A stretch of 64,000 nt of DNA from Escherichia phage UGJNEcP1. Where the stretch lies: sequence record OV754623, one strand, 5' to 3'. The position numbers and the translations under genes were made by a program. The notes beneath the pieces are model-generated. The model was not told the DNA's origin. It searched no databases and was given only the letters and a program-made list of their open reading frames with translations. Positions 25,261 through 53,166 of the stretch are shown in pieces (within the stretch, counting starts at the first letter, position 1; the number at the start of each line of letters is the position of its first letter).

Positions 25261-26361
25261 TTACGCTGTGAAGATTTTATCCCACATCGCAACAACTGCA
25301 TCTCGGTTATACTTCTTCCATACTGCTTCAGCACGTTTAACTCGAGCTTCGTATGTGTCAGTGAATTCTAATACAGCTTTTGTGTAAAGCGCAACTACTT
25401 CTTTCTTAGGAGTAGAGGAATCAATTTCTACACGCACAGTATCTGGGTCGTATTCGAATGTCGCATGAGGATAATCCTTAAAAACTAACTGGATTACAGG
25501 GACACCTTTAGAGATGGCTTCAATAGAACTATTCTCTACAGTACCTGTGTCAGGACACGTATTAATAAGTGCTTTAGCTGTTTTAAGACGTTCCATAATT
25601 TCACTGTGTGGAGCATCAATAATAACAGGATATTTAGCTGGTGGCGCCCATTTGCTTGGACAGTATCCTGCACCATTTTCGCCTAGTGCTTTAATCGCTT
25701 CAAGAGCAACATCAGTACGACGCATTTTAGTGTCATAACGTTGTGCACTAATAATCAGATCCGTCGCCGGAAGAACTTCTGGCTTTTCAGTCAAACAAAT
25801 AACCGGATAATCTTCGGCTTCAAACAACGGATTTGCTCGCCAATAATCATAATCAATTTTGTCAGTCAGACCTGAAGTCATATAACAATATTTGCGTTCA
25901 AATTCACGGAAGGCTTTAGTAGGAGCATAACTCTTACCACCATTCTTATGAATTTGAATAGTCTGGTCCCAAATTTGAACAATGCCACGAGATACCGGTT
26001 CAAATGGTGTTGCCATAAAATTCTTATGAACTTTAGAGAGACCTGCGTCTTTAATTGCCTGAACGGTTAGTTTAGTCGGTTCCATAGTAACAACAAAATC
26101 GTATTCATGGATGCCGGCTAGTTCAACAATCTTACGAGCCATAGTATAACTCATACCTAGACTGAATTTAGTCAGATGACCAACAGGATGATGATTAACT
26201 TTCCAATCACCAAATGTGTCATTATCAAAACCGATATAATCAATATCAGCACCGATGGACACAAGATATTTCAACACGTTCAAATGAACCGCTTCAAGAC
26301 CACCTTGTACACGGTCAGGATTAAATGGGACTGCACGAGATGGGATAAACATAACTTTCAT
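25261..26361 (-). CDS. putative GT4-like GT-B glycosyltransferase; candidate DNA sugar transferase
   Basis: 366 aa; N-terminal RVQGGLEAVHLNVLKYLVSIG resembles the GT4 GG.E..V..L...L...G motif; C-terminal TGTVENSSIEAISKGVPVIQ resembles the GT4 EGFG...EAMA.G.PVI donor-binding motif. Confidence 0.65.
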   Translation of the reverse strand: MKVMFIPSRAVPFNPDRVQGGLEAVHLNVLKYLVSIGADIDYIGFDNDTFGDWKVNHHPVGHLTKFSLGMSYTMARKIVELAGIHEYDFVVTMEPTKLTVQAIKDAGLSKVHKNFMATPFEPVSRGIVQIWDQTIQIHKNGGKSYAPTKAFREFERKYCYMTSGLTDKIDYDYWRANPLFEAEDYPVICLTEKPEVLPATDLIISAQRYDTKMRRTDVALEAIKALGENGAGYCPSKWAPPAKYPVIIDAPHSEIMERLKTAKALINTCPDTGTVENSSIEAISKGVPVIQLVFKDYPHATFEYDPDTVRVEIDSSTPKKEVVALYTKAVLEFTDTYEARVKRAEAVWKKYNRDAVVAMWDKIFTA

Positions 26362-43558: not shown

Positions 43559-45001
43559 TTAAAATTTTAACTCATTGGCTAAGCTATCTAGGTCAGCACG
43601 TGTTGCTTTGGCTTTACCTACGCGTTCCGTACGATTCACCTCTGCCTGACGCATCTGAGCACCTGCGTTTTCATTTACTGTGTTAGGTGTGTTCATGCCT
43701 TCTTGCTCAATCTCAATCCATTTCTGGTTGCCTTTACGTACACCCATCAGGAATTTATTCCACTTATTCTTATCACCATAACGTGATTTGATTTGTTTGA
43801 TAAGTTGTTGTTCGGCTTGTGCAAGTTCTTCGGTTTCAATTACAGCCAACATGAAATCTGCCGTTGCTGGTAAACCTGCTGATTCTGCGATATCACTCAT
43901 GTTCATGTCTGAAGCATCCCATGCTGCACGTCCTACTTGAGCTGCAGTCCATAGAACTGTTTCAGATTCTACTGCTAATGCACGAAGTTCTTCTGCGATA
44001 GCTTTAACTAATGTGTAGCTATTTTCAGTGTAAACTCTGATACGACAAGACCCACAAATACCTAAGTAATCAACCATGATTACAGATGGCACAAAGTTCT
44101 TCTTAAGTTTTAACTCATTAAGCAATGCACGGAATGTATTAGCATTAGCTCCACCAGTAGGATACTGTTTAACTACTAAACGTCCTAATGTGGATTTTGA
44201 ACGCCATTTTTCCATCTTGGCTTTATATTCAGCATAAGATACGTTACCATCATCGATATCATCGAGTGATACGTCAAGCATGTTTGCATCTATACGCTTA
44301 GCACAAACTTCTTCAGCCATTTCCATGGAAATATAAAGAACATTATGTCCTGTTTGAAGATAATCTGCAGCAAGTGAACAAAGGCCTAAAGATTTACCAA
44401 CGTTAACACCTGCCATTAAAACGTTTAGTGTACCAGTTTCAGCACCGCCTTTGGTGATTTTATTCAAAATGTTTAATTTGAACGGGACCTTACGTGCTTT
44501 GTTCAGATAAGAAAGCCAGCGTGCTTCGTAGTCTTCCATCCAGTCATGTCCAACATAACTATCGAACGAAATTGAAAGTGCTTGACGCATAATATCAGGA
44601 ATAGCTCCTACATCAGGCATTTTCTTGTTACGTTGTTCTGGAGGTAGTTCAGCATTAGACTGAATCTCAATGATTTTGGACGTAGCATTATACATCGCTT
44701 TTTGCTGGACATATTTCTCAGTTTCTTTAACCAACCATTCGTGGTCTTCAGGAGTATCAGCCAATTTTTCAATTAGGTCTGAAGTTCCTTTATATTCGGC
44801 TTCAGTTAAAGAACTGTTATCTAAAGCCACCTTTAATGCATTGATAGATGGCATTGCATTATATTCGTTAACGTGGCTCTTTATAATTTTAAAGACATTT
44901 TTTGCCGGTCCACGCTCAAAGTAATCAGAATCCATATAAGGCCAGACCTTAGAAAAATAAGCCTGGTCATATACTAGATGAGACAAAATAATTTCTACCA
45001 C
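43559..45001 (-). CDS. 41: replicative DNA helicase gp41 (DnaB-like)
   Basis: 480 aa (T4 gp41 475 aa); Walker A GVNVGKS and DnaB-family C-terminal domain. Confidence 0.95.
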   Translation of the reverse strand: MVEIILSHLVYDQAYFSKVWPYMDSDYFERGPAKNVFKIIKSHVNEYNAMPSINALKVALDNSSLTEAEYKGTSDLIEKLADTPEDHEWLVKETEKYVQQKAMYNATSKIIEIQSNAELPPEQRNKKMPDVGAIPDIMRQALSISFDSYVGHDWMEDYEARWLSYLNKARKVPFKLNILNKITKGGAETGTLNVLMAGVNVGKSLGLCSLAADYLQTGHNVLYISMEMAEEVCAKRIDANMLDVSLDDIDDGNVSYAEYKAKMEKWRSKSTLGRLVVKQYPTGGANANTFRALLNELKLKKNFVPSVIMVDYLGICGSCRIRVYTENSYTLVKAIAEELRALAVESETVLWTAAQVGRAAWDASDMNMSDIAESAGLPATADFMLAVIETEELAQAEQQLIKQIKSRYGDKNKWNKFLMGVRKGNQKWIEIEQEGMNTPNTVNENAGAQMRQAEVNRTERVGKAKATRADLDSLANELKF

Positions 45002-45010
45002 GATAACTCC

Positions 45011-45373
45011 TTAAAAGAATTTAAATTTTTTCTTGGCCCGTTCATTAAAAGCTTGTTGTACTTGCATTGTAACACATTTTTCAACATGTGGTGCAAGTTC
45101 TGCTTTTCTGTCCTGGTCAAGAACTGCAAAGTCCATTACGATTTTACCATCAACCCAGTCTAGTTTTGTAATATAGACTATATGATGGGAACCATCTTCA
45201 AGTGTAATCAGAATCTCTTGAATGACATTTTCCATTGCTGAACGGATAATTTTAAGAGATTCATTAAACACTCGTTCTTTGCGAATGTCTTCCCCTTCCG
45301 AAGAAGGGGATTCATCAACGATTTCTAGATTTAAATCATCGAGATTATTCATCGAAATCTTCCATTTCGTCAA
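45011..45373 (-). CDS. 40: gp40 candidate (head vertex assembly chaperone)
   Basis: 120 aa (T4 gp40 114 aa); synteny between 41 and uvsX. Confidence 0.55.
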   Translation of the reverse strand: MTKWKISMNNLDDLNLEIVDESPSSEGEDIRKERVFNESLKIIRSAMENVIQEILITLEDGSHHIVYITKLDWVDGKIVMDFAVLDQDRKAELAPHVEKCVTMQVQQAFNERAKKKFKFF

Positions 45374-46517
45374 GGTCGTTTTCTATATCTGCTGCAGACG
45401 GAGCATCAGAAGTTTTAACCGGAACTTTAGTTGTTGCTTTGCAATTAATAAGGTCATTAACAGCGTCATCAACTTCTTTAATAGAAGAGATAGCACCTAG
45501 TTTATATTTAGTTTCAATTGCATCTCGGAAAGGTTTGTGTTTAAACAAAGGTCCCCAGAATTCTACACAATCAGTAGCTTTAGCACGCCATGATTTTTCT
45601 TCACGAATCATTTCACCTGTTTCTTCGTCAAGGAATTCGCGAGCATACCAACCGGCTTTAGGCTTAACTACAAAACCAATTTCAGTTGCCATTTCTAACA
45701 AGCCACTGAATGGGTCAATACCGCCATCAAAATTAACCGTGATTGGGAAAGTAGATTTTTCTTTAACGGTGCGAGATTTTTCTGCTTTCAACGTGAAGTC
45801 ATAACCGGTCAATTCTGTACCTTCTTTAACCTGACGTTTAGAGATAAAAAATACCGTGTTGGCAGAATAAAGAATACCTGTACCACCGCCCATAATCTCT
45901 TTAGGATACAATCCGCCAATTTCCATTGCGGTATGGTTGATTGCAACACATGGAATATCTTTAATAGTCAGATAAGGAGTCACAATACGGAACAGAGATT
46001 TAAGTGCCTTAGCACGAGACATATCACCTACAACTTTCTCGTTCAACGCATCTTCGGTTTCTTTCTTAGATGCAGTATTACCGATTGAATCGATAAAGAT
46101 AATAACTTTATCACCGCGTTCAATCGCGTCAAGCTGATTAGTCATATCAACTTTAAGTTGTTCGACTGACTGAATTGGTGTATGAACTACACGGTCTAAA
46201 TCAACACCCATTGAACGAAAATAAGATTCTGAAGCACCAAATTCTGAATCATAGAACAAACAAATTGCATCTTTATATTTCTTCATATATGCTGCAACCA
46301 TAGTTAGTCCAAACAACGTTTTAAAGTGTTTAGAAGGAGCAGCAAAAATAGTCAAGCCTGATTGCAATCCTGCATTCAGAGCACCACCTAATGCAATATT
46401 CAACATCGGAATACGAGTAGGGACTTCATCACGATTATTAAACAGCTTAGACTTAGTCAAGTCTGCAGTCATTTTAGAAGTAGAAGCTTTAATCAGACGA
46501 GATTTTAAATCAGACAT
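45345..46517 (-). CDS. uvsX: UvsX recombinase (RecA-like)
   Basis: 390 aa (T4 UvsX 391 aa); RecA-fold Walker A region and acidic C-terminus. Confidence 0.95.
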   Translation of the reverse strand: MSDLKSRLIKASTSKMTADLTKSKLFNNRDEVPTRIPMLNIALGGALNAGLQSGLTIFAAPSKHFKTLFGLTMVAAYMKKYKDAICLFYDSEFGASESYFRSMGVDLDRVVHTPIQSVEQLKVDMTNQLDAIERGDKVIIFIDSIGNTASKKETEDALNEKVVGDMSRAKALKSLFRIVTPYLTIKDIPCVAINHTAMEIGGLYPKEIMGGGTGILYSANTVFFISKRQVKEGTELTGYDFTLKAEKSRTVKEKSTFPITVNFDGGIDPFSGLLEMATEIGFVVKPKAGWYAREFLDEETGEMIREEKSWRAKATDCVEFWGPLFKHKPFRDAIETKYKLGAISSIKEVDDAVNDLINCKATTKVPVKTSDAPSAADIENDLDEMEDFDE

Positions 46518-46615
46518 TGTATTTTTCCATAGGCATCATTATATTTTACTCATGTTTAAAAGATAAGATGATTATATACTAAGAGTTATACAGCATTTAA
46601 AACTTTAAATGGCTC

Positions 46616-47164
46616 TTAACGAGCCCATTTAATGATTTCTGTAATCAAATTATTACGTTCGCTTGCATTAAATCCTATAACTTTGTTAGAACCATCATGA
46701 TTAAGTAATTGATACGTTTGGATTTTGTTATGAATTGCAAACTCTTCAAAATGTGAAATGACTGTATTAAAACCGAATGAAGACAAAGTAATAAGGTCGT
46801 CTTCAAAACTTTCAGTCATTTCGTTACGTGTTAAAATAATTGTGAACACATCATGGTTTTGGCAAAGACGAACATAATCCTGTTCATAAACGTCAAGAAC
46901 CGAGTCCGCATCTTGTCGAATACGTCCATAAACCCAGTTACTAATATATCCACGGTCTAATAGATAAATCTTAGTAGGGTCTAAATAATTCAACATCGTT
47001 TCGAAACAGCCAACTTCATTTCGAGACTTAACATCGAAACGCCCATCAACTGTTCGTTTAGGGAAATCAATCTTTACATATCTTTCACTAATTTCCATTA
47101 TATCATTAATGAAAGTTGTTTTACCAGCATTATCCGGCCCGTCTACTAAAATAATTTTAGCCAT
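46616..47164 (-). CDS. P-loop kinase (thymidylate/deoxynucleoside-kinase-like fold)
   Basis: 182 aa; Walker A GPDNAGKTT and downstream LLDRGY (DR motif); occupies part of the T4 beta-gt slot. Confidence 0.6.
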   Translation of the reverse strand: MAKIILVDGPDNAGKTTFINDIMEISERYVKIDFPKRTVDGRFDVKSRNEVGCFETMLNYLDPTKIYLLDRGYISNWVYGRIRQDADSVLDVYEQDYVRLCQNHDVFTIILTRNEMTESFEDDLITLSSFGFNTVISHFEEFAIHNKIQTYQLLNHDGSNKVIGFNASERNNLITEIIKWAR

Positions 47165-47165
47165 T

Positions 47166-48065
47166 TTATTCCTCGATTACGACATCTTCGTATTTAGGTA
47201 TATTATACGGTGAAGAAATTAAAGCATTAAAGTAGATGAACTCACCAAGACCTGGATGGAATACTTCTTCAGGATTTTCGAAATATTGAATCTTCGGACG
47301 TCCTTTAAGAATTTGATAGTACTCAGTTTTAGTTGGATTAAAAATTCGAATCAGCGCTTCTTCAGGATACTTATTTCTGTCGAAACTATTATTTGGATCA
47401 GTTATATAAAGCGGTTGACCTAATTGAATTGCGCATTCAACCACTTGTTCAAAACGATAGCATGGGTCACTAATTCGAAATGGATGAAAAATACCATCTA
47501 GATGAATAGGAGCCAAATCACCTACAAGACGCTGCATGACGGAAGGACGTATAACTTTCTGCGTTACGATAATCTTATTACCATCTGCACCTGCGTTAAC
47601 CAGCACTTCTTTTTGACGTTCATTCAACATAGTAGTTTGAAGTGAACGATTAACAGACAACATGTCGGTTTTTAAGAATTCATCAATATAAAAACGTGGT
47701 TTATTAGGGTCTGCAGTGATATTGAAATTGAATTCTACATCAAAAGCGCCGTCATATCCAGTGATATCTGTGATTAGAAAATCACAATCATAATAAGCAA
47801 TTAATGAATCAACCACAAATTCATTTTCAGACCAAAAATATTTACGAGTGTTATACGCGTTATCTTTATACCATAATGGAACAAACTTAAATTCTGGGAA
47901 AAGACGTTCACATTCTTTAATATCAGATGCATTACGTGGATATGTAATCACATCACCCGGATTAGCACGGTGCAAATGAAGTTGGAAGTTGCCATCCTTA
48001 AGGATAGCATACTGTCCAGTTTCATAAGACCGCATACTCAAGATAGGTACGCGGAAAATAGCCAT
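47166..48065 (-). CDS. hypothetical protein in the beta-gt slot (candidate transferase)
   Basis: 299 aa; no confident motif; positional replacement of T4 beta-glucosyltransferase; stop/start abutting neighbours. Confidence 0.5.
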   Translation of the reverse strand: MAIFRVPILSMRSYETGQYAILKDGNFQLHLHRANPGDVITYPRNASDIKECERLFPEFKFVPLWYKDNAYNTRKYFWSENEFVVDSLIAYYDCDFLITDITGYDGAFDVEFNFNITADPNKPRFYIDEFLKTDMLSVNRSLQTTMLNERQKEVLVNAGADGNKIIVTQKVIRPSVMQRLVGDLAPIHLDGIFHPFRISDPCYRFEQVVECAIQLGQPLYITDPNNSFDRNKYPEEALIRIFNPTKTEYYQILKGRPKIQYFENPEEVFHPGLGEFIYFNALISSPYNIPKYEDVVIEE

Positions 48066-48781
48066 TAGTCAAGGAATCCTTTAACATAATCAAAATCACG
48101 TTCAAACACATGGGCACTTACCATGGTATGAGTATAATCACCAACTTCTACACCACATTCGTTAGCGATATAATGAAGTAATTTTCCTTGGAGATAAAAA
48201 TCCAACTGCATAACAACAGCACAGTTCTGGGAACGCATATGACAGTGGGTATAAAGCTTACCATCACGAATATAATAAGTCACTGAGTCAGTACATGGAT
48301 ATTCAAGCGTTTCGTCCGAATCAAGCAAAGCCTGATCAGAACTTTCTAGAATTTGGAACACAACTCTTCGGGAGTTAGGCTTCTCTTTAAGTTCTTTTAG
48401 AAGAGCTGGTAATTGAGCCGCAATGCGAGGGCCATAGAAAGTGTTGAAGTTCGCCGGCAAAACATCTGATTTTGGTTTAGAAATAAATTTAGCGACATTA
48501 GGATATGCCTTAAACGCTTCTTCTGCGTTGGTACCACCAGAAATCATAAACTTCCAGAAGTCTTCGGCATATTCATAAGAGATGCGGTTAATACGTGGGT
48601 CGGTCATTTTGAATGATGATGGAGTGTCAACAACCACTGTCATAGACCCAATTTCATTACAACGTCCAATACGAGAATCAGTTACGAATTCCGGGTTTTC
48701 TAAAATTTCACGATTGACTGCTTTAAATGCGGCTTGAAAATCTGCGGCTTTGATATATTTCATTGTGTTATGTTTTCCCAT
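48065..48781 (-). CDS. 42: thymidylate-synthase-fold pyrimidine C5-modifying enzyme, probable dCMP hydroxymethylase gp42
   Basis: 238 aa; YPCTDSVTYYIRDGKLYTHCHMRSQN has the catalytic-Cys and R/S motifs of the TS/dCMP-hydroxymethylase fold; synteny. Confidence 0.65.
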   Translation of the reverse strand: MGKHNTMKYIKAADFQAAFKAVNREILENPEFVTDSRIGRCNEIGSMTVVVDTPSSFKMTDPRINRISYEYAEDFWKFMISGGTNAEEAFKAYPNVAKFISKPKSDVLPANFNTFYGPRIAAQLPALLKELKEKPNSRRVVFQILESSDQALLDSDETLEYPCTDSVTYYIRDGKLYTHCHMRSQNCAVVMQLDFYLQGKLLHYIANECGVEVGDYTHTMVSAHVFERDFDYVKGFLD

Positions 48782-48823: not shown

Positions 48824-49063
48824 TTATTTGAATTTCTTGACAATGTTGATATAACGTAAAGCTTCAGCATCGATACTTCCAAGAACACTATGAAGAAATG
48901 CATCAGCGTAATATTCTAGTTGAACAGGTTCTTTAATCACTTTAGCCGCTTTAGTTTCAAACAGGCCCATCAGGGCCTTTTTAAGAATTTGTTCGTTAGT
49001 GTTCAGTTTAATAGTCAAAATCTCTTCGTTAAGTTGGTGGTTAAAAGTTTTTCTAGAAATCAT
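48824..49063 (-). CDS. hypothetical small protein
   Basis: 79-aa ORF with ATGA-type overlap with the upstream gene. Confidence 0.45.
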   Translation of the reverse strand: MISRKTFNHQLNEEILTIKLNTNEQILKKALMGLFETKAAKVIKEPVQLEYYADAFLHSVLGSIDAEALRYINIVKKFK

Positions 49064-50220
49064 TCCGGGTACCTCAAAGCGTCATCAGAGTTAGTTATAT
49101 CAATAATAGATATAGAGTTTTCTGCTAACCCGTTTTTAGATAATTGACGTTTATAATATCTTTCACAATATGTACACGTCGTCCCGCAGATTTCATTAGC
49201 ACAATCGAAATCTGGATGTCTGAACCACCTTTTTTCTAAAAAGCCATCTAACAAAGAGGTTTCAATATTTACTGTATGTGAAAACTCAGTTTCGTTTTCA
49301 AGAGTGAAAATAGTCTCTAAAGGCTTCCACAGTTCTAACAAATTACCTTCAAACTTTTCAGAAGCGTATGCTTCAAGAACTTTCAAAATGTAGTCTGTGC
49401 TACCTGTACGTCCTGAAACTTTGAATTGAGTGATACCAATATCATTATAAAGTTTCAAATCTTGAGGACGAACAAAACGAGTTCTCAACCAGTTAAATGG
49501 GTCTGTATCACGAGCTTTAATACAGTGCTGCATAGGATATCCGTTTAAGGATTTAGCATCATCGGCTGTAACATCAGTACTATGGAAAATATAGCAAGAG
49601 TCACGATAGCTACAATGTGTTGTATACCCTTTACCAGCATTAGAACAGAACTCATTTACAAGAACTTCAAATATTATATTGTTCTTATTGCAAAACTCTG
49701 CTGCACGCTTCAGGAAAGAAACTGAACGGTTCTTATGAATTCCACAGCAGACCTTTTTGATATTATATTGGTCATGCAAGTATTTGATTTGAGTTACAGC
49801 ATCGACATGTAGAATTGTTGAAACTTCAATCTCAATGTCTTTATTGACTTCACGAACAATTTCCATAACAACAGGGTTAGCGATAGTAATACGCCATACG
49901 CCTATTGACCAAAGATACTGAACATAATCCTGAATAGCTTTCTTCTTCCACTCAACTAGTTCTCTTTTTGAACCAGGATTTATCGTGTTGAGTGTATAGT
50001 TAAAGCAAATACCTAATTCGTTACAACGTTTAACGTAATCTTCTAACATCTTTTTGTCAACGTCAGGAAGCCTAAAATCAGGTCTGGCTGCTACAAAAGC
50101 CATTTCTCTTGTAGAGCCGTATACTTCATTTATCAAGCTATTAGGATAAGTTTTATTGAGCTCTACGATTTTATCAAGAAGAGCTAAATCAAAATTCGTT
50201 CCGATTTTAAAAGTATTCAT
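49060..50220 (-). CDS. U32-family (collagenase-like / Fe-S hydroxylase-like) enzyme candidate
   Basis: 386 aa; NYTLNTIN and VLVNEFCSNAGKGYTTHCSY resemble U32 TIM-barrel motifs (partial match to the E.F..G..C....G.C..S signature); C-terminal C-x4-C-x3-C-x2-C cluster. Confidence 0.45.
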   Translation of the reverse strand: MNTFKIGTNFDLALLDKIVELNKTYPNSLINEVYGSTREMAFVAARPDFRLPDVDKKMLEDYVKRCNELGICFNYTLNTINPGSKRELVEWKKKAIQDYVQYLWSIGVWRITIANPVVMEIVREVNKDIEIEVSTILHVDAVTQIKYLHDQYNIKKVCCGIHKNRSVSFLKRAAEFCNKNNIIFEVLVNEFCSNAGKGYTTHCSYRDSCYIFHSTDVTADDAKSLNGYPMQHCIKARDTDPFNWLRTRFVRPQDLKLYNDIGITQFKVSGRTGSTDYILKVLEAYASEKFEGNLLELWKPLETIFTLENETEFSHTVNIETSLLDGFLEKRWFRHPDFDCANEICGTTCTYCERYYKRQLSKNGLAENSISIIDITNSDDALRYPE

Positions 50221-50274: not shown

Positions 50275-50679
50275 TTATTGTAGATTCGGTTTATATGATT
50301 TAAATGTTTCGAATTCGCCTTTATTCATAAGAGCTTTGAATTCGTCAGGACGCATAGCTTTGTCGTCGATAATCCAATCATATACTGGTTTATGTGTTAG
50401 CAAATTATGGTACTTCAAGCCAATGTTTGCCAAGTTCTGAATCAGACTTGGGAGAATGTCAATTGCTATACGACCAGGACCTACTGACTTCATACCGCGA
50501 GCAGTGTAAAGCGTTATGGTATGCCCTGCATCATACAGGGCATTAATGGCAGACACCATTTCGACGTCTGGTTTGAAGTTCACGTAATCACGATTGTTAT
50601 TCCACTCTGTTATACAATCATCGACATCAAAACAAAGATTAAGCATGTTTTCTACACGGTGCATTAGATTCGTTCCCAT
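50275..50679 (-). CDS. HAD-superfamily phosphatase-like protein
   Basis: 134 aa; LCFDVDDCIT (DxD motif I), TLYTARG (motif II), IIDDK (motif IV). Confidence 0.55.
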   Translation of the reverse strand: MGTNLMHRVENMLNLCFDVDDCITEWNNNRDYVNFKPDVEMVSAINALYDAGHTITLYTARGMKSVGPGRIAIDILPSLIQNLANIGLKYHNLLTHKPVYDWIIDDKAMRPDEFKALMNKGEFETFKSYKPNLQ

Positions 50680-52349
50680 TGATGAGTGATATCGCCACCG
50701 ATTGGACGATAAGAAACACCAGTTTCTTTATCAGTTAGTACCCATTTACCAGGATTTTTTGTAATCAGAGTAGCCGTTACAGGCTCTGCTACGTCATAAC
50801 TAATAGAGCCGTCTTGAAGTACACGGCCCATGTTACGTAATTGCTTAGTCAGAAGTTCCATACCTTTATAATATGCGGCTACCGCTTTAAGTGGATTATT
50901 CTTGAAATAACCACCTAATGCAATCCAGATAATTGCCACCGCCAAATGATGATACTCGTTAAACGAACTCATCTTTCCATATTTGTAAATTAATGGATTG
51001 ATGTTAATAGTCACATTACAAGTTGTTTCATCAATAGTAAACTGTCCCCAGGTCGGATTAGCATTGAATTCATCATAACCTGAAACAGCATAAAGCACTT
51101 TAGCTTCATCGTACAATTTTGGCCCGTAAATCTTGGTTTCGCCAAAATATCCACGAGGGTCGATAAACTTGACTTCGCCGTTATCAGTAATCATAGTATT
51201 ACTGAAGTTCGGGTCACCGTGAATAACAGAGTACTGTCCCTGAGAACGGTTATGATAACGAATAAGGTGTTCTAAAGCTTGTTTCAGCATTGGCTTCAGA
51301 CGTCCAATCTTAGTGTAGTTCACGTGTGTGATTTTACCAAATGAATCAATCAATGGTTGAATGCTTTCACAACGATCAATAACTTTCGTATAGAATTCTT
51401 TAGTGAAATCACGACGAACAGTTTCAGGACTTACAAAATAAGTGTCTGTGCTGAATTTCAGTGCATCTAAAATTGCATCAACAATTTGTGGACGAGCAAG
51501 ACTTGATTTGGATTTAATATATTCAAATGCCGGCTTACCTTTAATGCGTTCCATTTCAAAGTTATTTTCATTAACAGAAACTAACTGAGGAACTGAATCT
51601 GATTTCACTTTAAGATACCATGAAATCTCATCTTTCTGAAGAGCTCGGCCCTGTTCGGTTAATGCGAATTTAGTTACAGTTTCTTCACCAATTTCAACTG
51701 CATTAAAACTACGATTAAGTTCACGAACTTCATGAGCCTTTTCAAGTTTAGGCATATCACCTAAATCAATTAGATTCATAAGCTCTGATTTATTGAATGC
51801 ACTCCCGTAAAGGAATTCTACAAAATCACGTCCTTTGCAATATTCGTGAATTTCCTCATCAGTAGAACCCATGTAGAATTCCCAGTCTTTGAACTGATAA
51901 ATTCCTACAACATTACCACCTGTTGAACCTACGTTAGTGATATTTTCACCGTCGAAATTATATCGACATTCGTCACCCTTAACATAGATTGCGTTAACAT
52001 TCCAAGACCATGAACCAAAATCAGGAATAATATCACACCAGTTAACAATTACGTTATGGCCGTCTAAATCTTTGTGTAATTTAGCAAGAGCATAAGCAGA
52101 ACCATACGCTTCATCAACTGTACGAATAGTCACATTGAACCCTTCTTGCTCACAATAAGCTCGAACAGTTTCAGCAAATTTTGAATGAACTACTACAATA
52201 ATTTCATCTGCGCCAAGGTCAGAATAAATTGTATACAAATTGCTCAGAATAGTGTCTTGTTTATAGTTAACAAGCACCTTAGGAATATGATGCGTTATTG
52301 GATACAAACGAGTTGCCAGTCCAGCACCAAGAATAACAGCTTTTTTCAT
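50664..52349 (-). CDS. bifunctional sugar-1-phosphate nucleotidyltransferase / APH-like sugar kinase
   Basis: 561 aa; N-terminal MKKAVILGAGLATRLYPITHHIPKVLV (nucleotidyltransferase G-loop); C-terminal VIHGDPNFSNTMI...FIDPRGYFGE (HGD...N and ID motifs of the aminoglycoside/choline-kinase fold). Confidence 0.75.
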   Translation of the reverse strand: MKKAVILGAGLATRLYPITHHIPKVLVNYKQDTILSNLYTIYSDLGADEIIVVVHSKFAETVRAYCEQEGFNVTIRTVDEAYGSAYALAKLHKDLDGHNVIVNWCDIIPDFGSWSWNVNAIYVKGDECRYNFDGENITNVGSTGGNVVGIYQFKDWEFYMGSTDEEIHEYCKGRDFVEFLYGSAFNKSELMNLIDLGDMPKLEKAHEVRELNRSFNAVEIGEETVTKFALTEQGRALQKDEISWYLKVKSDSVPQLVSVNENNFEMERIKGKPAFEYIKSKSSLARPQIVDAILDALKFSTDTYFVSPETVRRDFTKEFYTKVIDRCESIQPLIDSFGKITHVNYTKIGRLKPMLKQALEHLIRYHNRSQGQYSVIHGDPNFSNTMITDNGEVKFIDPRGYFGETKIYGPKLYDEAKVLYAVSGYDEFNANPTWGQFTIDETTCNVTININPLIYKYGKMSSFNEYHHLAVAIIWIALGGYFKNNPLKAVAAYYKGMELLTKQLRNMGRVLQDGSISYDVAEPVTATLITKNPGKWVLTDKETGVSYRPIGGDITHQWERI

Positions 52350-52390: not shown

Positions 52391-52534
52391 CTAGTTAAAG
52401 CATTCATACTTTGCTTGTAGTCCAATCATAATCCATCCGATTATAAGAGTCGGAATCATTACCGGAGCCGTTAAGCTCCAGTAGATAGTCATGACAAGCA
52501 TCAATAGTAAAAGTCCTATTGTTATTGCTTTCAT
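52391..52534 (-). CDS. small hydrophobic peptide
   Basis: 47-aa ORF MKAITIGLLLLMLVMTIYWSL...; ATGA overlap with the SIS gene stop; below track cutoff. Confidence 0.3.
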   Translation of the reverse strand: MKAITIGLLLLMLVMTIYWSLTAPVMIPTLIIGWIMIGLQAKYECFN

Positions 52535-53166
52535 TGTTCGCCTCGTAACATGGCACCTAGTGCACCGCCTGGATGGAACTTAAGGAAGTCATTAGAGGTA
52601 AATCCACGTTCAGACGAAAGGTTGATAGCAAACGTATCGATAAGCGCTAACAACAATGTAGTGGACATAGTCGGAGCCAGAGAATTCTCATCAACCTCTA
52701 CCGCGATGCCTGTACAGAAAGAGTAATCAAAAAGGGCTTCATTTTCTTGCGGAATGTCTGGGTTACAATGCAACAGAATCTGTTTGACGTTCGGTCGAAT
52801 CATTTTAAGATGCTTAGCCACGCCTATCATTTCTTCAGTTTTACCAGAACGACTAATATGAATCAACACATCATTAGGCGCAATGAATCCTGCGTCACCG
52901 TGAGAATAATGTCCAGTGTTCAAGTACATACTCGGGATACCGAGTGAAGCAAATGTCTCAGAAGCTTTAGTTGCAATATTAGCATTCTTACCAACACCTG
53001 TAATAATTACTCGGCTTTCATAATTACTAAGTCCAGGGCGTCGAAGAGTTTCTAGAATAGCATTATAACGAGCAGGGTTTTGACTAATTACTTTGGCCAT
53101 AGCGGCCAAAGAAGAAGCTTGTTTTATGATTGCGTCAATAGCGATAGTAATAGGAGTAGTTTTCAT
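52531..53166 (-). CDS. SIS-domain sugar-phosphate isomerase (arabinose-5-phosphate isomerase / GmhA-like)
   Basis: 211 aa; ITGVGKNANIA and HISRSGKTEE are canonical SIS phosphosugar-binding motifs; no CBS domains. Confidence 0.75.
   Translation of the reverse strand: MKTTPITIAIDAIIKQASSLAAMAKVISQNPARYNAILETLRRPGLSNYESRVIITGVGKNANIATKASETFASLGIPSMYLNTGHYSHGDAGFIAPNDVLIHISRSGKTEEMIGVAKHLKMIRPNVKQILLHCNPDIPQENEALFDYSFCTGIAVEVDENSLAPTMSTTLLLALIDTFAINLSSERGFTSNDFLKFHPGGALGAMLRGEQ

Follow-up and report, generated by a model that had tools for sequence, protein, structure and literature searches.

The uvsX-42 interval of Escherichia phage UGJNEcP1 encodes a predicted glycosyltransferase and a thymidylate-kinase-like protein of a probable 5-hydroxycytosine hypermodification cassette

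What stands in the place of the T4 beta-glucosyltransferase gene (b-gt) in Escherichia phage UGJNEcP1, and what do its products do? In T4 the gene order is uvsX-segA-b-gt-42, whereas in the 64,000-nucleotide (nt) stretch of UGJNEcP1 analysed here (sequence record OV754623; hereafter the window) uvsX is followed by genes for a kinase of 182 amino acids (aa), a 299-aa protein and a homologue of thymidylate synthase (ThyA). A first-pass annotation, made from the letters of the sequence, had drawn this comparison, correctly as regards T4, and had described two tightly packed open reading frames (ORFs) for a P-loop kinase and a possible second transferase. Both ORFs lie where it placed them, between uvsX and the ThyA-homologue gene (Table 1), and both genes are real and under selection; 137 homologue clusters were found for the 299-aa protein, and each protein has matches in more than 340 phage records. 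In our reading, which we hold with moderate confidence, the interval comprises the last two genes of a three-gene cassette (5-hydroxy-dCMP synthase, glycosyltransferase and kinase) that serves the RB69-like arabinosyl-5-hydroxycytosine hypermodification of DNA by the mechanism set out below.

The modified base is indicated by the gene that flanks the pair. This gene had been called 42, but its product is only 25% identical to T4 gp42; it matches the Protein Data Bank (PDB) entries 9iqc/9ir2/9iqu at E 7.9e-161 and differs from them by a handful of substitutions in 238 residues. It carries the motif MRSQN where T4 has MRSND, which corresponds to D169N, a change published as the hallmark of 5-hydroxy-dCMP synthases (Lee et al., NAR 2026, PMC13326640). 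Judged from its sequence, the protein is thus a flavin- and O2-dependent synthase of 5-hydroxy-deoxycytidine monophosphate (5hodCMP) and not a hydroxymethylase. For RB69 gp48, Lee et al. demonstrated the conversion of dCMP to 5hodCMP, with oxygen derived from O2 and with a bound flavin, and the DNA base of RB69 is beta-D-Araf-(1-3)-alpha-D-Araf-5-O-dC (Araf, arabinofuranose) and not the arabinosyl-hydroxymethylcytosine that was first reported (PMC13326640). The initial framing of the locus as the T4 hydroxymethylcytosine pathway with a different sugar therefore has to be abandoned: the base is 5-hydroxycytosine (5hoC) and the sugar is D-arabinofuranose. The donor, UDP-arabinofuranose (UDP-Araf), is made by AfhE- and AfhF-type genes upstream in the cluster, UDP-arabinose pyrophosphorylase activity has been reported in phage HY126 for the protein with the nucleotidyltransferase domain, and the later arabinosylation steps act on DNA, as shown for orthologues (PMC13326640). 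The second arabinose has been proposed to be added by a gp3-type enzyme (PMC13326640). In the window, this enzyme is the 366-aa orthologue of RB69 ORF003c. Its gene lies some 21 kb outside the cluster, its sequence corresponds to a protein of solved structure, the "phage HY126 glycosyltransferase" (9iqz/9ir0), and Pfam and NCBIfam searches gave no match; it is the second arabinosyltransferase of the pathway.

According to the mechanism that we propose, the ThyA homologue would start the pathway by hydroxylating dCMP to 5hodCMP, the reaction shown for the RB69 orthologue. The 182-aa kinase would then phosphorylate the modified pyrimidine mononucleotide, most likely 5hodCMP, to the diphosphate, by which the modified nucleotide would reach the triphosphate pool and replace dC on incorporation; this role would overlap with that of the T4-gp1-type deoxynucleoside monophosphate (dNMP) kinase, which such phages possess as well. 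With UDP-Araf from the isomerase and the AfhE-like and AfhF-like gene products encoded upstream, the 299-aa protein would attach the first D-arabinofuranose to the base at its 5-hydroxyl. The base-proximal sugar would thereby be alpha-linked, and replicated DNA is the most likely acceptor. Finally, the gp3-type transferase would add the second, beta-1,3-linked arabinose.

The 299-aa protein is supported as a glycosyltransferase by its predicted fold. The structure was predicted with a mean local confidence (pLDDT) of 94.5, and the model has two Rossmann-like beta/alpha/beta domains and structural likeness to solved glycosyltransferases of the GT-B fold class. In the structural comparison, sucrose-phosphate synthase (6kih) scored 17.8, BshA 17.0, PimA 15.9, the HY126 gp3-type transferase 14.7 and the T4 alpha-glucosyltransferase (alpha-GT) 13.4. 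As a single sequence, the protein has no match in Pfam, NCBIfam or the PDB, and a profile of 40 sequences of its family found no glycosyltransferase in the PDB. Membership of family GT4 is likewise not apparent in the sequence, because the Pfam models Glycos_transf_1 and Glyco_trans_4 have no match and the canonical EX7E motif is absent; in its place the family conserves H270-P-G-x-x-E275. The motifs SMRS, KDGN, NFNIT, FPFRISD, TDPN, K..EYY and HPG..E are invariant in the family, and the invariant R197, K246 and H270-P-G...E275 of the C-terminal domain would be placed where GT-B enzymes bind the nucleotide-sugar. Descent of the 299-aa protein from a diverged beta-gt orthologue is rejected, because T4 b-gt is neither related to it in sequence nor its closest structure.

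The suggestion that the 299-aa protein might be a second transferase therefore holds for transferase, given the GT-B fold, and not for second. It is more likely to be the first, base-proximal transferase, because it is the sole transferase that is syntenic in all lineages, including the mono-arabinosylated phage Thanatos, which keeps only the 299-aa type (47% identical in the Thanatos-2 orthologue) beside a ThyA homologue and the kinase. The same assignment is supported by the retaining enzymes among its fold neighbours and by the gp3-type enzyme, a separate gene that Lee et al. proposed for the second arabinose. Within the accessible literature, the first sugar transfer is the only step of the pathway that we found neither demonstrated nor reconstituted.

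The 182-aa protein is, as first described, a Walker-A kinase with a DR motif. It contains the P-loop G9-P-D-N-A-G-K15-T16 and D70-R71, and G9, K15, D70, R71 and Y79 form an invariant core in an alignment with 25 relatives down to 18% identity. Its fold is that of thymidylate kinases (TMPKs), with a P-loop of the form GxxxxGK(S/T) and the DR motif. Searches with the single sequence against the PDB and Escherichia coli Tmk gave matches to the P-loop only. A broadened profile of 25 sequences matched SPbeta YorR (6e-12), the fungal and yeast type-I TMPKs 5uiv and 1tmk (about 1e-11) and vaccinia TMPK (3.5e-8), and the aligned segments were the P-loop, FPxR, R-x-E and DR(x)3S...Y. The FPxR, R-x-E and DR segments correspond to those that hold the phosphate of the nucleoside monophosphate (NMP) in TMPKs. 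The placement of an arginine either in the P-loop or in the lid distinguishes type I from type II TMPKs. The kinase has Asn12 at the P-loop position and R113 at the start of the lid, and in the 25-sequence alignment all 20 sequences without a P-loop Arg have R113, whereas R113 is missing from each of the five in which the P-loop contains Arg. This pattern resembles the type I/type II swap and argues for an active enzyme in which R113 presumably compensates for the P-loop Arg. The protein falls below the curated TMPK models, with no match to Pfam PF02223 at E<=0.1 and 16.9 bits against a cutoff of 83.25 for TIGR00041, in the P-loop only; for distant members of its family the scores rise to 24-25 bits, short of the cutoff of 27 of a curated thymidylate kinase model. 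We therefore place it in the TMPK superfamily without regarding it as a thymidylate kinase proper. The T4 gp1-type structures 1dek/1del are not its closest structural relations.

The kinase, the transferase and the ThyA homologue occur as a linked set. Starting from the transferase, 51 loci were fetched from IMG/VR, 48 of which contain downstream sequence and are informative. The ThyA homologue adjoins the transferase gene in nearly all of the 51 loci, as it does in the window, and the kinase accompanies both in 46 of the 48, directly downstream of the transferase in 33 loci, directly upstream in two and at another place in the cluster in 11. Of 50,697 phage records, 348 contain the transferase (searched by tblastn) and 343 the kinase, and the counts by genus nearly coincide (Escherichia, 176/176; Acinetobacter, 57/57). 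The trio is kept in the non-T4-like metagenomic loci L030, L034 and L040-L042, in whose full flanks neither an AfhE nor a HAD gene lies within 6 kb. In the IMG/VR contigs L089 (7995-11744) and L091 (7959-12516), a ThyA homologue of the 5hodCMP-synthase type is followed in turn by an uncharacterized protein of 434-448 aa (with an additional 286-aa protein in L091), a TMPK-like kinase and an NAD-dependent sugar epimerase/dehydratase; these cassettes probably make another glycosylated 5hoC by means of a non-homologous transferase. Rhizobium phage RL38J1, whose 5hoC bears a hexose (galactose/glucose), has the kinase-transferase-ThyA trio in the same order (PMC13326640). Because the kinase is kept in all these loci, which lack the arabinose genes or have others instead, its association is with the modified base and not with the sugar, which sets it apart from a general dTMP kinase of phages. 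The first-pass suggestion of a nucleotide or sugar intermediate as its substrate is accordingly borne out only as far as likeness to nucleotide kinases is concerned, through the homology to TMPKs; a sugar is an unlikely substrate, because the protein has the segments by which TMPKs bind the phosphate of the NMP and because the kinase persists where the arabinose genes do not.

Several observations weigh against the roles proposed above. When the transferases of phage DLP3 were assayed singly, including gp79, the orthologue of the 299-aa protein, with UDP-Araf or UDP-arabinopyranose (UDP-Arap), 5hoC-DNA was not arabinosylated (data not shown in that report), and Lee et al. cannot tell a mononucleotide from DNA as the acceptor of the first sugar (PMC13326640). 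TH1_063, the Thanatos orthologue, is reported to yield UDP-xylose in vitro when given UTP and xylose-1-phosphate (PMC12838424). RB69 gp159, a gp1-type kinase, already converts 5hodCMP to 5hodCDP (PMC13326640), so that a TMPK-like kinase looks redundant for this step. A retaining mechanism cannot be deduced from the fold alone; the gp3-type transferase is also GT4-like, yet is assigned a beta linkage. The acidity of the 299-aa protein (pI 5.05; family median, 5.1; T4 beta-gt, 9.05) argues weakly against a DNA-binding enzyme; as an indicator of DNA binding, net charge is suggestive but not decisive, because a basic pI is also lacking in the gp3-type transferase (pI 6.3), although its counterparts in DLP3 work on DNA. 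In the accessible literature, outside which fall He et al. (2026) and Mahler et al. (2025), papers that may assign the roles differently, enzymatic activity has been demonstrated for neither the kinase nor the 299-aa protein.

Part of this evidence would be accommodated if the 299-aa transferase arabinosylated free 5hodCMP before replication. The kinase would then handle the bulky Araf-5-O-dCMP that gp1-type and host kinases refuse, the polymerase would use a glycosylated dCTP analogue, and only the second arabinose would be added on DNA. The transferase is coupled to the kinase almost without exception, and in many cases the stop codon of one gene overlaps the start codon of the next; this would be consistent with such a route, which would also explain why a second dNMP-type kinase exists beside a gp1 homologue that is active on 5hodCMP, and why single transferases were inactive on 5hoC-DNA when the later ones were active; Lee et al. 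explicitly left the question open (PMC13326640). The best structural neighbours (sucrose-phosphate synthase, BshA, MshA-type enzymes and PimA) take small phosphorylated or anionic acceptors, and the acidic family has the invariant basic residues R12, K23, R33 and R74 in its N-terminal (acceptor) domain. However, charge and the acceptors of neighbours are weak indicators, and DNA activity has been shown for gp76 and gp77, the DLP3 counterparts of the gp3-type transferase that is itself not basic; the negative assay may reflect inactive protein; and the kinase does not adjoin the transferase in 11 of the 46 loci. Moreover, the phage DNA glycosylations characterized so far all occur on polymerized DNA, reportedly for the alpha- and beta-glucosyltransferases of T4 and as found for the later arabinosyl steps (PMC13326640). 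We consider this route unlikely, although, if true, it would be the first nucleotide-level DNA glycosylation in a virus and would account for the dedicated kinase that accompanies the transferase in almost every lineage.

The remaining explanations reassign one protein or the other. That the 182-aa protein is an ordinary dTMP kinase that boosts the supply of dTTP, with no specific link to cytosine modification, agrees with its fold, its profile homology and the label "thymidylate kinase" in many records; it appears improbable, because the curated TMPK models fail to recognize the protein, because the kinase occurs almost only where the 299-aa transferase occurs and is absent from the uvsX-42 interval of T4, and because T4-type phages handle dTMP with the gp1 kinase (gp159 in RB69). 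The activity of TH1_063, a 300-aa protein whose gene adjoins that of the Thanatos ThyA homologue, suggests a UDP-pentose pyrophosphorylase in place of a base transferase, with another enzyme installing the base-proximal sugar; the Thanatos-2 counterpart is an orthologue of the 299-aa protein with 47% identity. This is very improbable: the predicted fold is GT-B, whereas sugar-1-phosphate pyrophosphorylases have a nucleotidyltransferase fold, a dedicated domain of the latter kind is already supplied by the 561-aa protein of the cluster, Thanatos would be left without any transferase, and a co-purifying E. coli UTP:sugar-1-phosphate uridylyltransferase could account for the assay. Finally, the kinase might act on the polymer or on the 5-hydroxyl itself, in the manner of the 5-hydroxymethyluracil DNA kinases, or might be a non-catalytic activator of the transferase. 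P-loop kinases of similar type are said to prime hypermodification on DNA in other phages, reportedly in work by Lee et al. from 2018 and 2021, and a need for a partner would fit the inactivity of the transferase alone in vitro (PMC13326640). We regard this as scarcely probable at all, because the TMPK segments for the NMP phosphate are conserved, the glycosidic ether at O5 of the final product requires a free hydroxyl nucleophile, and the invariant catalytic Lys and the DR motif argue against a purely structural role.

The arrangement of the genes is summarized in Table 1; the gene for the family-B DNA polymerase lies on the minus strand beyond the SIS-domain isomerase. The tight packing noted at first inspection is evident in the sequence. 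At 48065, the stop codon of the ThyA-homologue gene and the start codon of the 299-aa ORF overlap by 1 nt in TAATG, and one base separates the stop codon of the latter from the ATG of the kinase gene, just 5' of which lies a ribosome-binding site (GAGGA). A promoter/terminator scan found no terminator-like site between the three genes, and its promoter-like matches were at chance level (23 found and 25.3 expected) and uninformative. The G+C content dips to 0.31-0.34 over the kinase gene and the 3' half of the transferase gene (46250-47500), compared with 0.37-0.40 in uvsX and the ThyA homologue. The low-G+C stretch fits a horizontally acquired or exchanged cassette. The position of the kinase within the cluster also shifts between genera.

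Table 1. Genes of the hypermodification cluster and its surroundings in the window of Escherichia phage UGJNEcP1.
Feature	Coordinates	Strand	Remarks
366-aa second glycosyltransferase	25261..26361	minus	RB69 ORF003c/gp3 orthologue; outside cluster; E 5.9e-249 to PDB 9iqz
gp41 helicase	43559-45001	minus	
gp40-like ORF	between gp41 helicase and uvsX	minus	
uvsX	45345-46517	minus	98-nt gap, then 182-aa ORF
182-aa P-loop NMP kinase, TMPK superfamily	46616..47164	minus	RB69 gp45 orthologue; PHROG 761
299-aa compact GT-B glycosyltransferase	47166..48065	minus	RB69 gp46:47 orthologue; PHROG 3891; predicted first (alpha) arabinofuranosyltransferase on 5hoC
238-aa ThyA homologue, 5-hydroxy-dCMP synthase	48065..48781	minus	RB69 gp48; translationally coupled to transferase
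79-aa ORF	48824..49063	minus	PHROG 8601; function unknown; no Pfam match; slot is chorismate mutase in related phages
386-aa U32-family protein	49060..50220	minus	RB69 gp50; Pfam Peptidase_U32 7e-11; weak UbiU match
134-aa HAD-type phosphatase	50275..50679	minus	RB69 gp51/AfhF-like; PHROG 1238; UDP-arabinofuranose synthesis (PMC13326640)
561-aa bifunctional nucleotidyltransferase and kinase	50664..52349	minus	RB69 gp52:53/AfhE-like; Pfam NTP_transferase 8.5e-10, weak kinase-family matches; UDP-arabinofuranose synthesis (PMC13326640)
211-aa SIS-domain arabinose-5-phosphate isomerase	52531..53166	minus	RB69 gp55; Pfam SIS 1e-10; RB69p055 annotated arabinose 5-phosphate isomerase

The window belongs to a Mosigvirus. 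The region is 100% identical to that of Escherichia phage UGJNEcP2, whose proteins are exact matches to the kinase and the 299-aa protein; its identity with many other genomes of Mosigvirus, Bas46, Bas47 and Shf125875 among them, is 98-99%. The kinase shares 98% protein identity with RB69p045, and the 299-aa ORF is colinear with RB69p047 plus RB69p046 at 99% column identity. One extra T in the RB69 record (NC_004928; locus L100, 3098-3998; alignment column 545) splits the transferase gene into these two ORFs, a split that Lee et al. put down to a sequencing error (PMC13326640). The 299-aa protein matches PHROG 3891 over residues 1-298, that is, over the full length of the family (E 3.6e-155).

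A further gene of the cluster may merit more attention than the kinase and the transferase themselves. For the U32-family gene, the published designation is no more than "sugar or heterocycle reductase". Its product has a C-terminal cysteine cluster, C340-x4-C345-x3-C349-x2-C352, together with internal cysteines, and the cluster looks like an iron-sulfur binding motif. The U32 enzymes RlhA, TrhP and UbiU/V are prephenate-dependent, O2-independent hydroxylases, and RlhA makes 5-hydroxycytidine in rRNA; for the RNA enzymes, PMC13326640 cites its references 65 and 66. By analogy, the U32 gene may provide an O2-independent (anaerobic) route to 5hoC that complements the O2-dependent ThyA homologue, an idea that we did not find in the searchable literature. 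In the Klebsiella phage KLB31 (Kanagawavirus), the Erwinia phage Virsaitis27 (Winklervirus) and Shewanella phage Thanatos-2, the U32 gene is directly followed by a true chorismate mutase gene, which scores 38.5, 44.6 and 32.8 bits, respectively, with Pfam CM_2 against a cutoff of 27 (loci L101, 2983-4394; L102, 2992-4502; L103, 5001-6391). In L048 (5466-8051) and L049 (4301-6865), the kinase-transferase pair lies beside a U32 gene, and the flanks contain no ThyA homologue. U32 homologues are present in 221 phage records; the genera listed are those of Enterobacterales phages and Shewanella phage Thanatos-2, and Acinetobacter is absent from the top genera. None of the five Acinetobacter-phage loci inspected has a U32 gene within 6 kb, and the transferase occurs in 57 Acinetobacter phage records. 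In the window, the 79-aa ORF and the end of the U32 gene have 4 nt in common. Its identification as a diverged chorismate mutase is unsupported, because it has no Pfam match and no likeness to the CM_2 proteins of the three phages; the 114-aa chorismate mutase of Virsaitis27 starts with INHxxNE, which resembles the N-terminus of the 79-aa ORF.

The original observation at this locus is correct but already known. The module was remarked on in 2018 (PMC6024577), publications of 2025-2026 described the genes and predicted their roles, and Lee et al. list the two genes as "nucleotide kinase" and "arabinosyltransferase 1", the latter a structure-based prediction (PMC13326640). The additions made here are incremental and comprise independent structural confirmation, the negative beta-gt test, the sequence-level homology to TMPKs with the arginine swap, and the quantified co-occurrence that ties the kinase to the base. 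They bear on the annotation of hundreds of Mosigvirus and related records: the synthase, for which the labels dCMP hydroxymethylase and thymidylate synthase are widespread, should be named 5-hydroxy-dCMP synthase; the transferase, publicly named hypothetical protein or, spuriously, "RNA polymerase binding protein", should be named GT-B transferase; and the label "thymidylate kinase", including that of PHROG 761, sits on a cassette-specific kinase. The arabinosyl-5-hydroxycytosine pathway shields coliphages of the therapeutic type from restriction, CRISPR and DNA-glycosylase defences. The conserved hydroxylase-transferase-kinase cassette defines a minimal gene set and frames an either/or question, that is, whether the acceptor is DNA or a nucleotide.

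Compared with known systems, the interval combines familiar and divergent elements. T4 beta-glucosyltransferase (GT63) occupies the same slot between uvsX and a ThyA-family gene, is likewise of the GT-B fold class and likewise decorates a C5-oxygenated cytosine. T4 alpha-glucosyltransferase (GT72) and the bacterial GT4 retaining enzymes (6kih; BshA, 6n1x; PimA, 2gej; WaaG, 8b5s) are 7-13% identical to the 299-aa protein, which is about 50-100 residues shorter. There is no biological difference from RB69 gp46:47 or DLP3 gp79, "arabinosyltransferase 1"; the ORF is intact in the window and split in the RB69 record. The kinase corresponds to the "nucleotide kinase" RB69 gp45, DLP3 gp78 and Rhizobium phage RL38J1 gp214, to which no substrate is assigned (PMC13326640, Table 1). 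T4 gp1 dNMP kinase (RB69 gp159) is a functional analogue that moves modified dCMP toward the triphosphate pool. In comparison with the thymidylate kinases of yeast (1tmk) and vaccinia virus (2v54) and with SPbeta YorR (2axp/3kb2), the kinase of the window has Asn for the P-loop Arg with a presumably compensating Arg 113, a short lid and Gly as the third residue of the DRY/H/F motif, and its phyletic pattern is tied to 5-hydroxycytosine cassettes.

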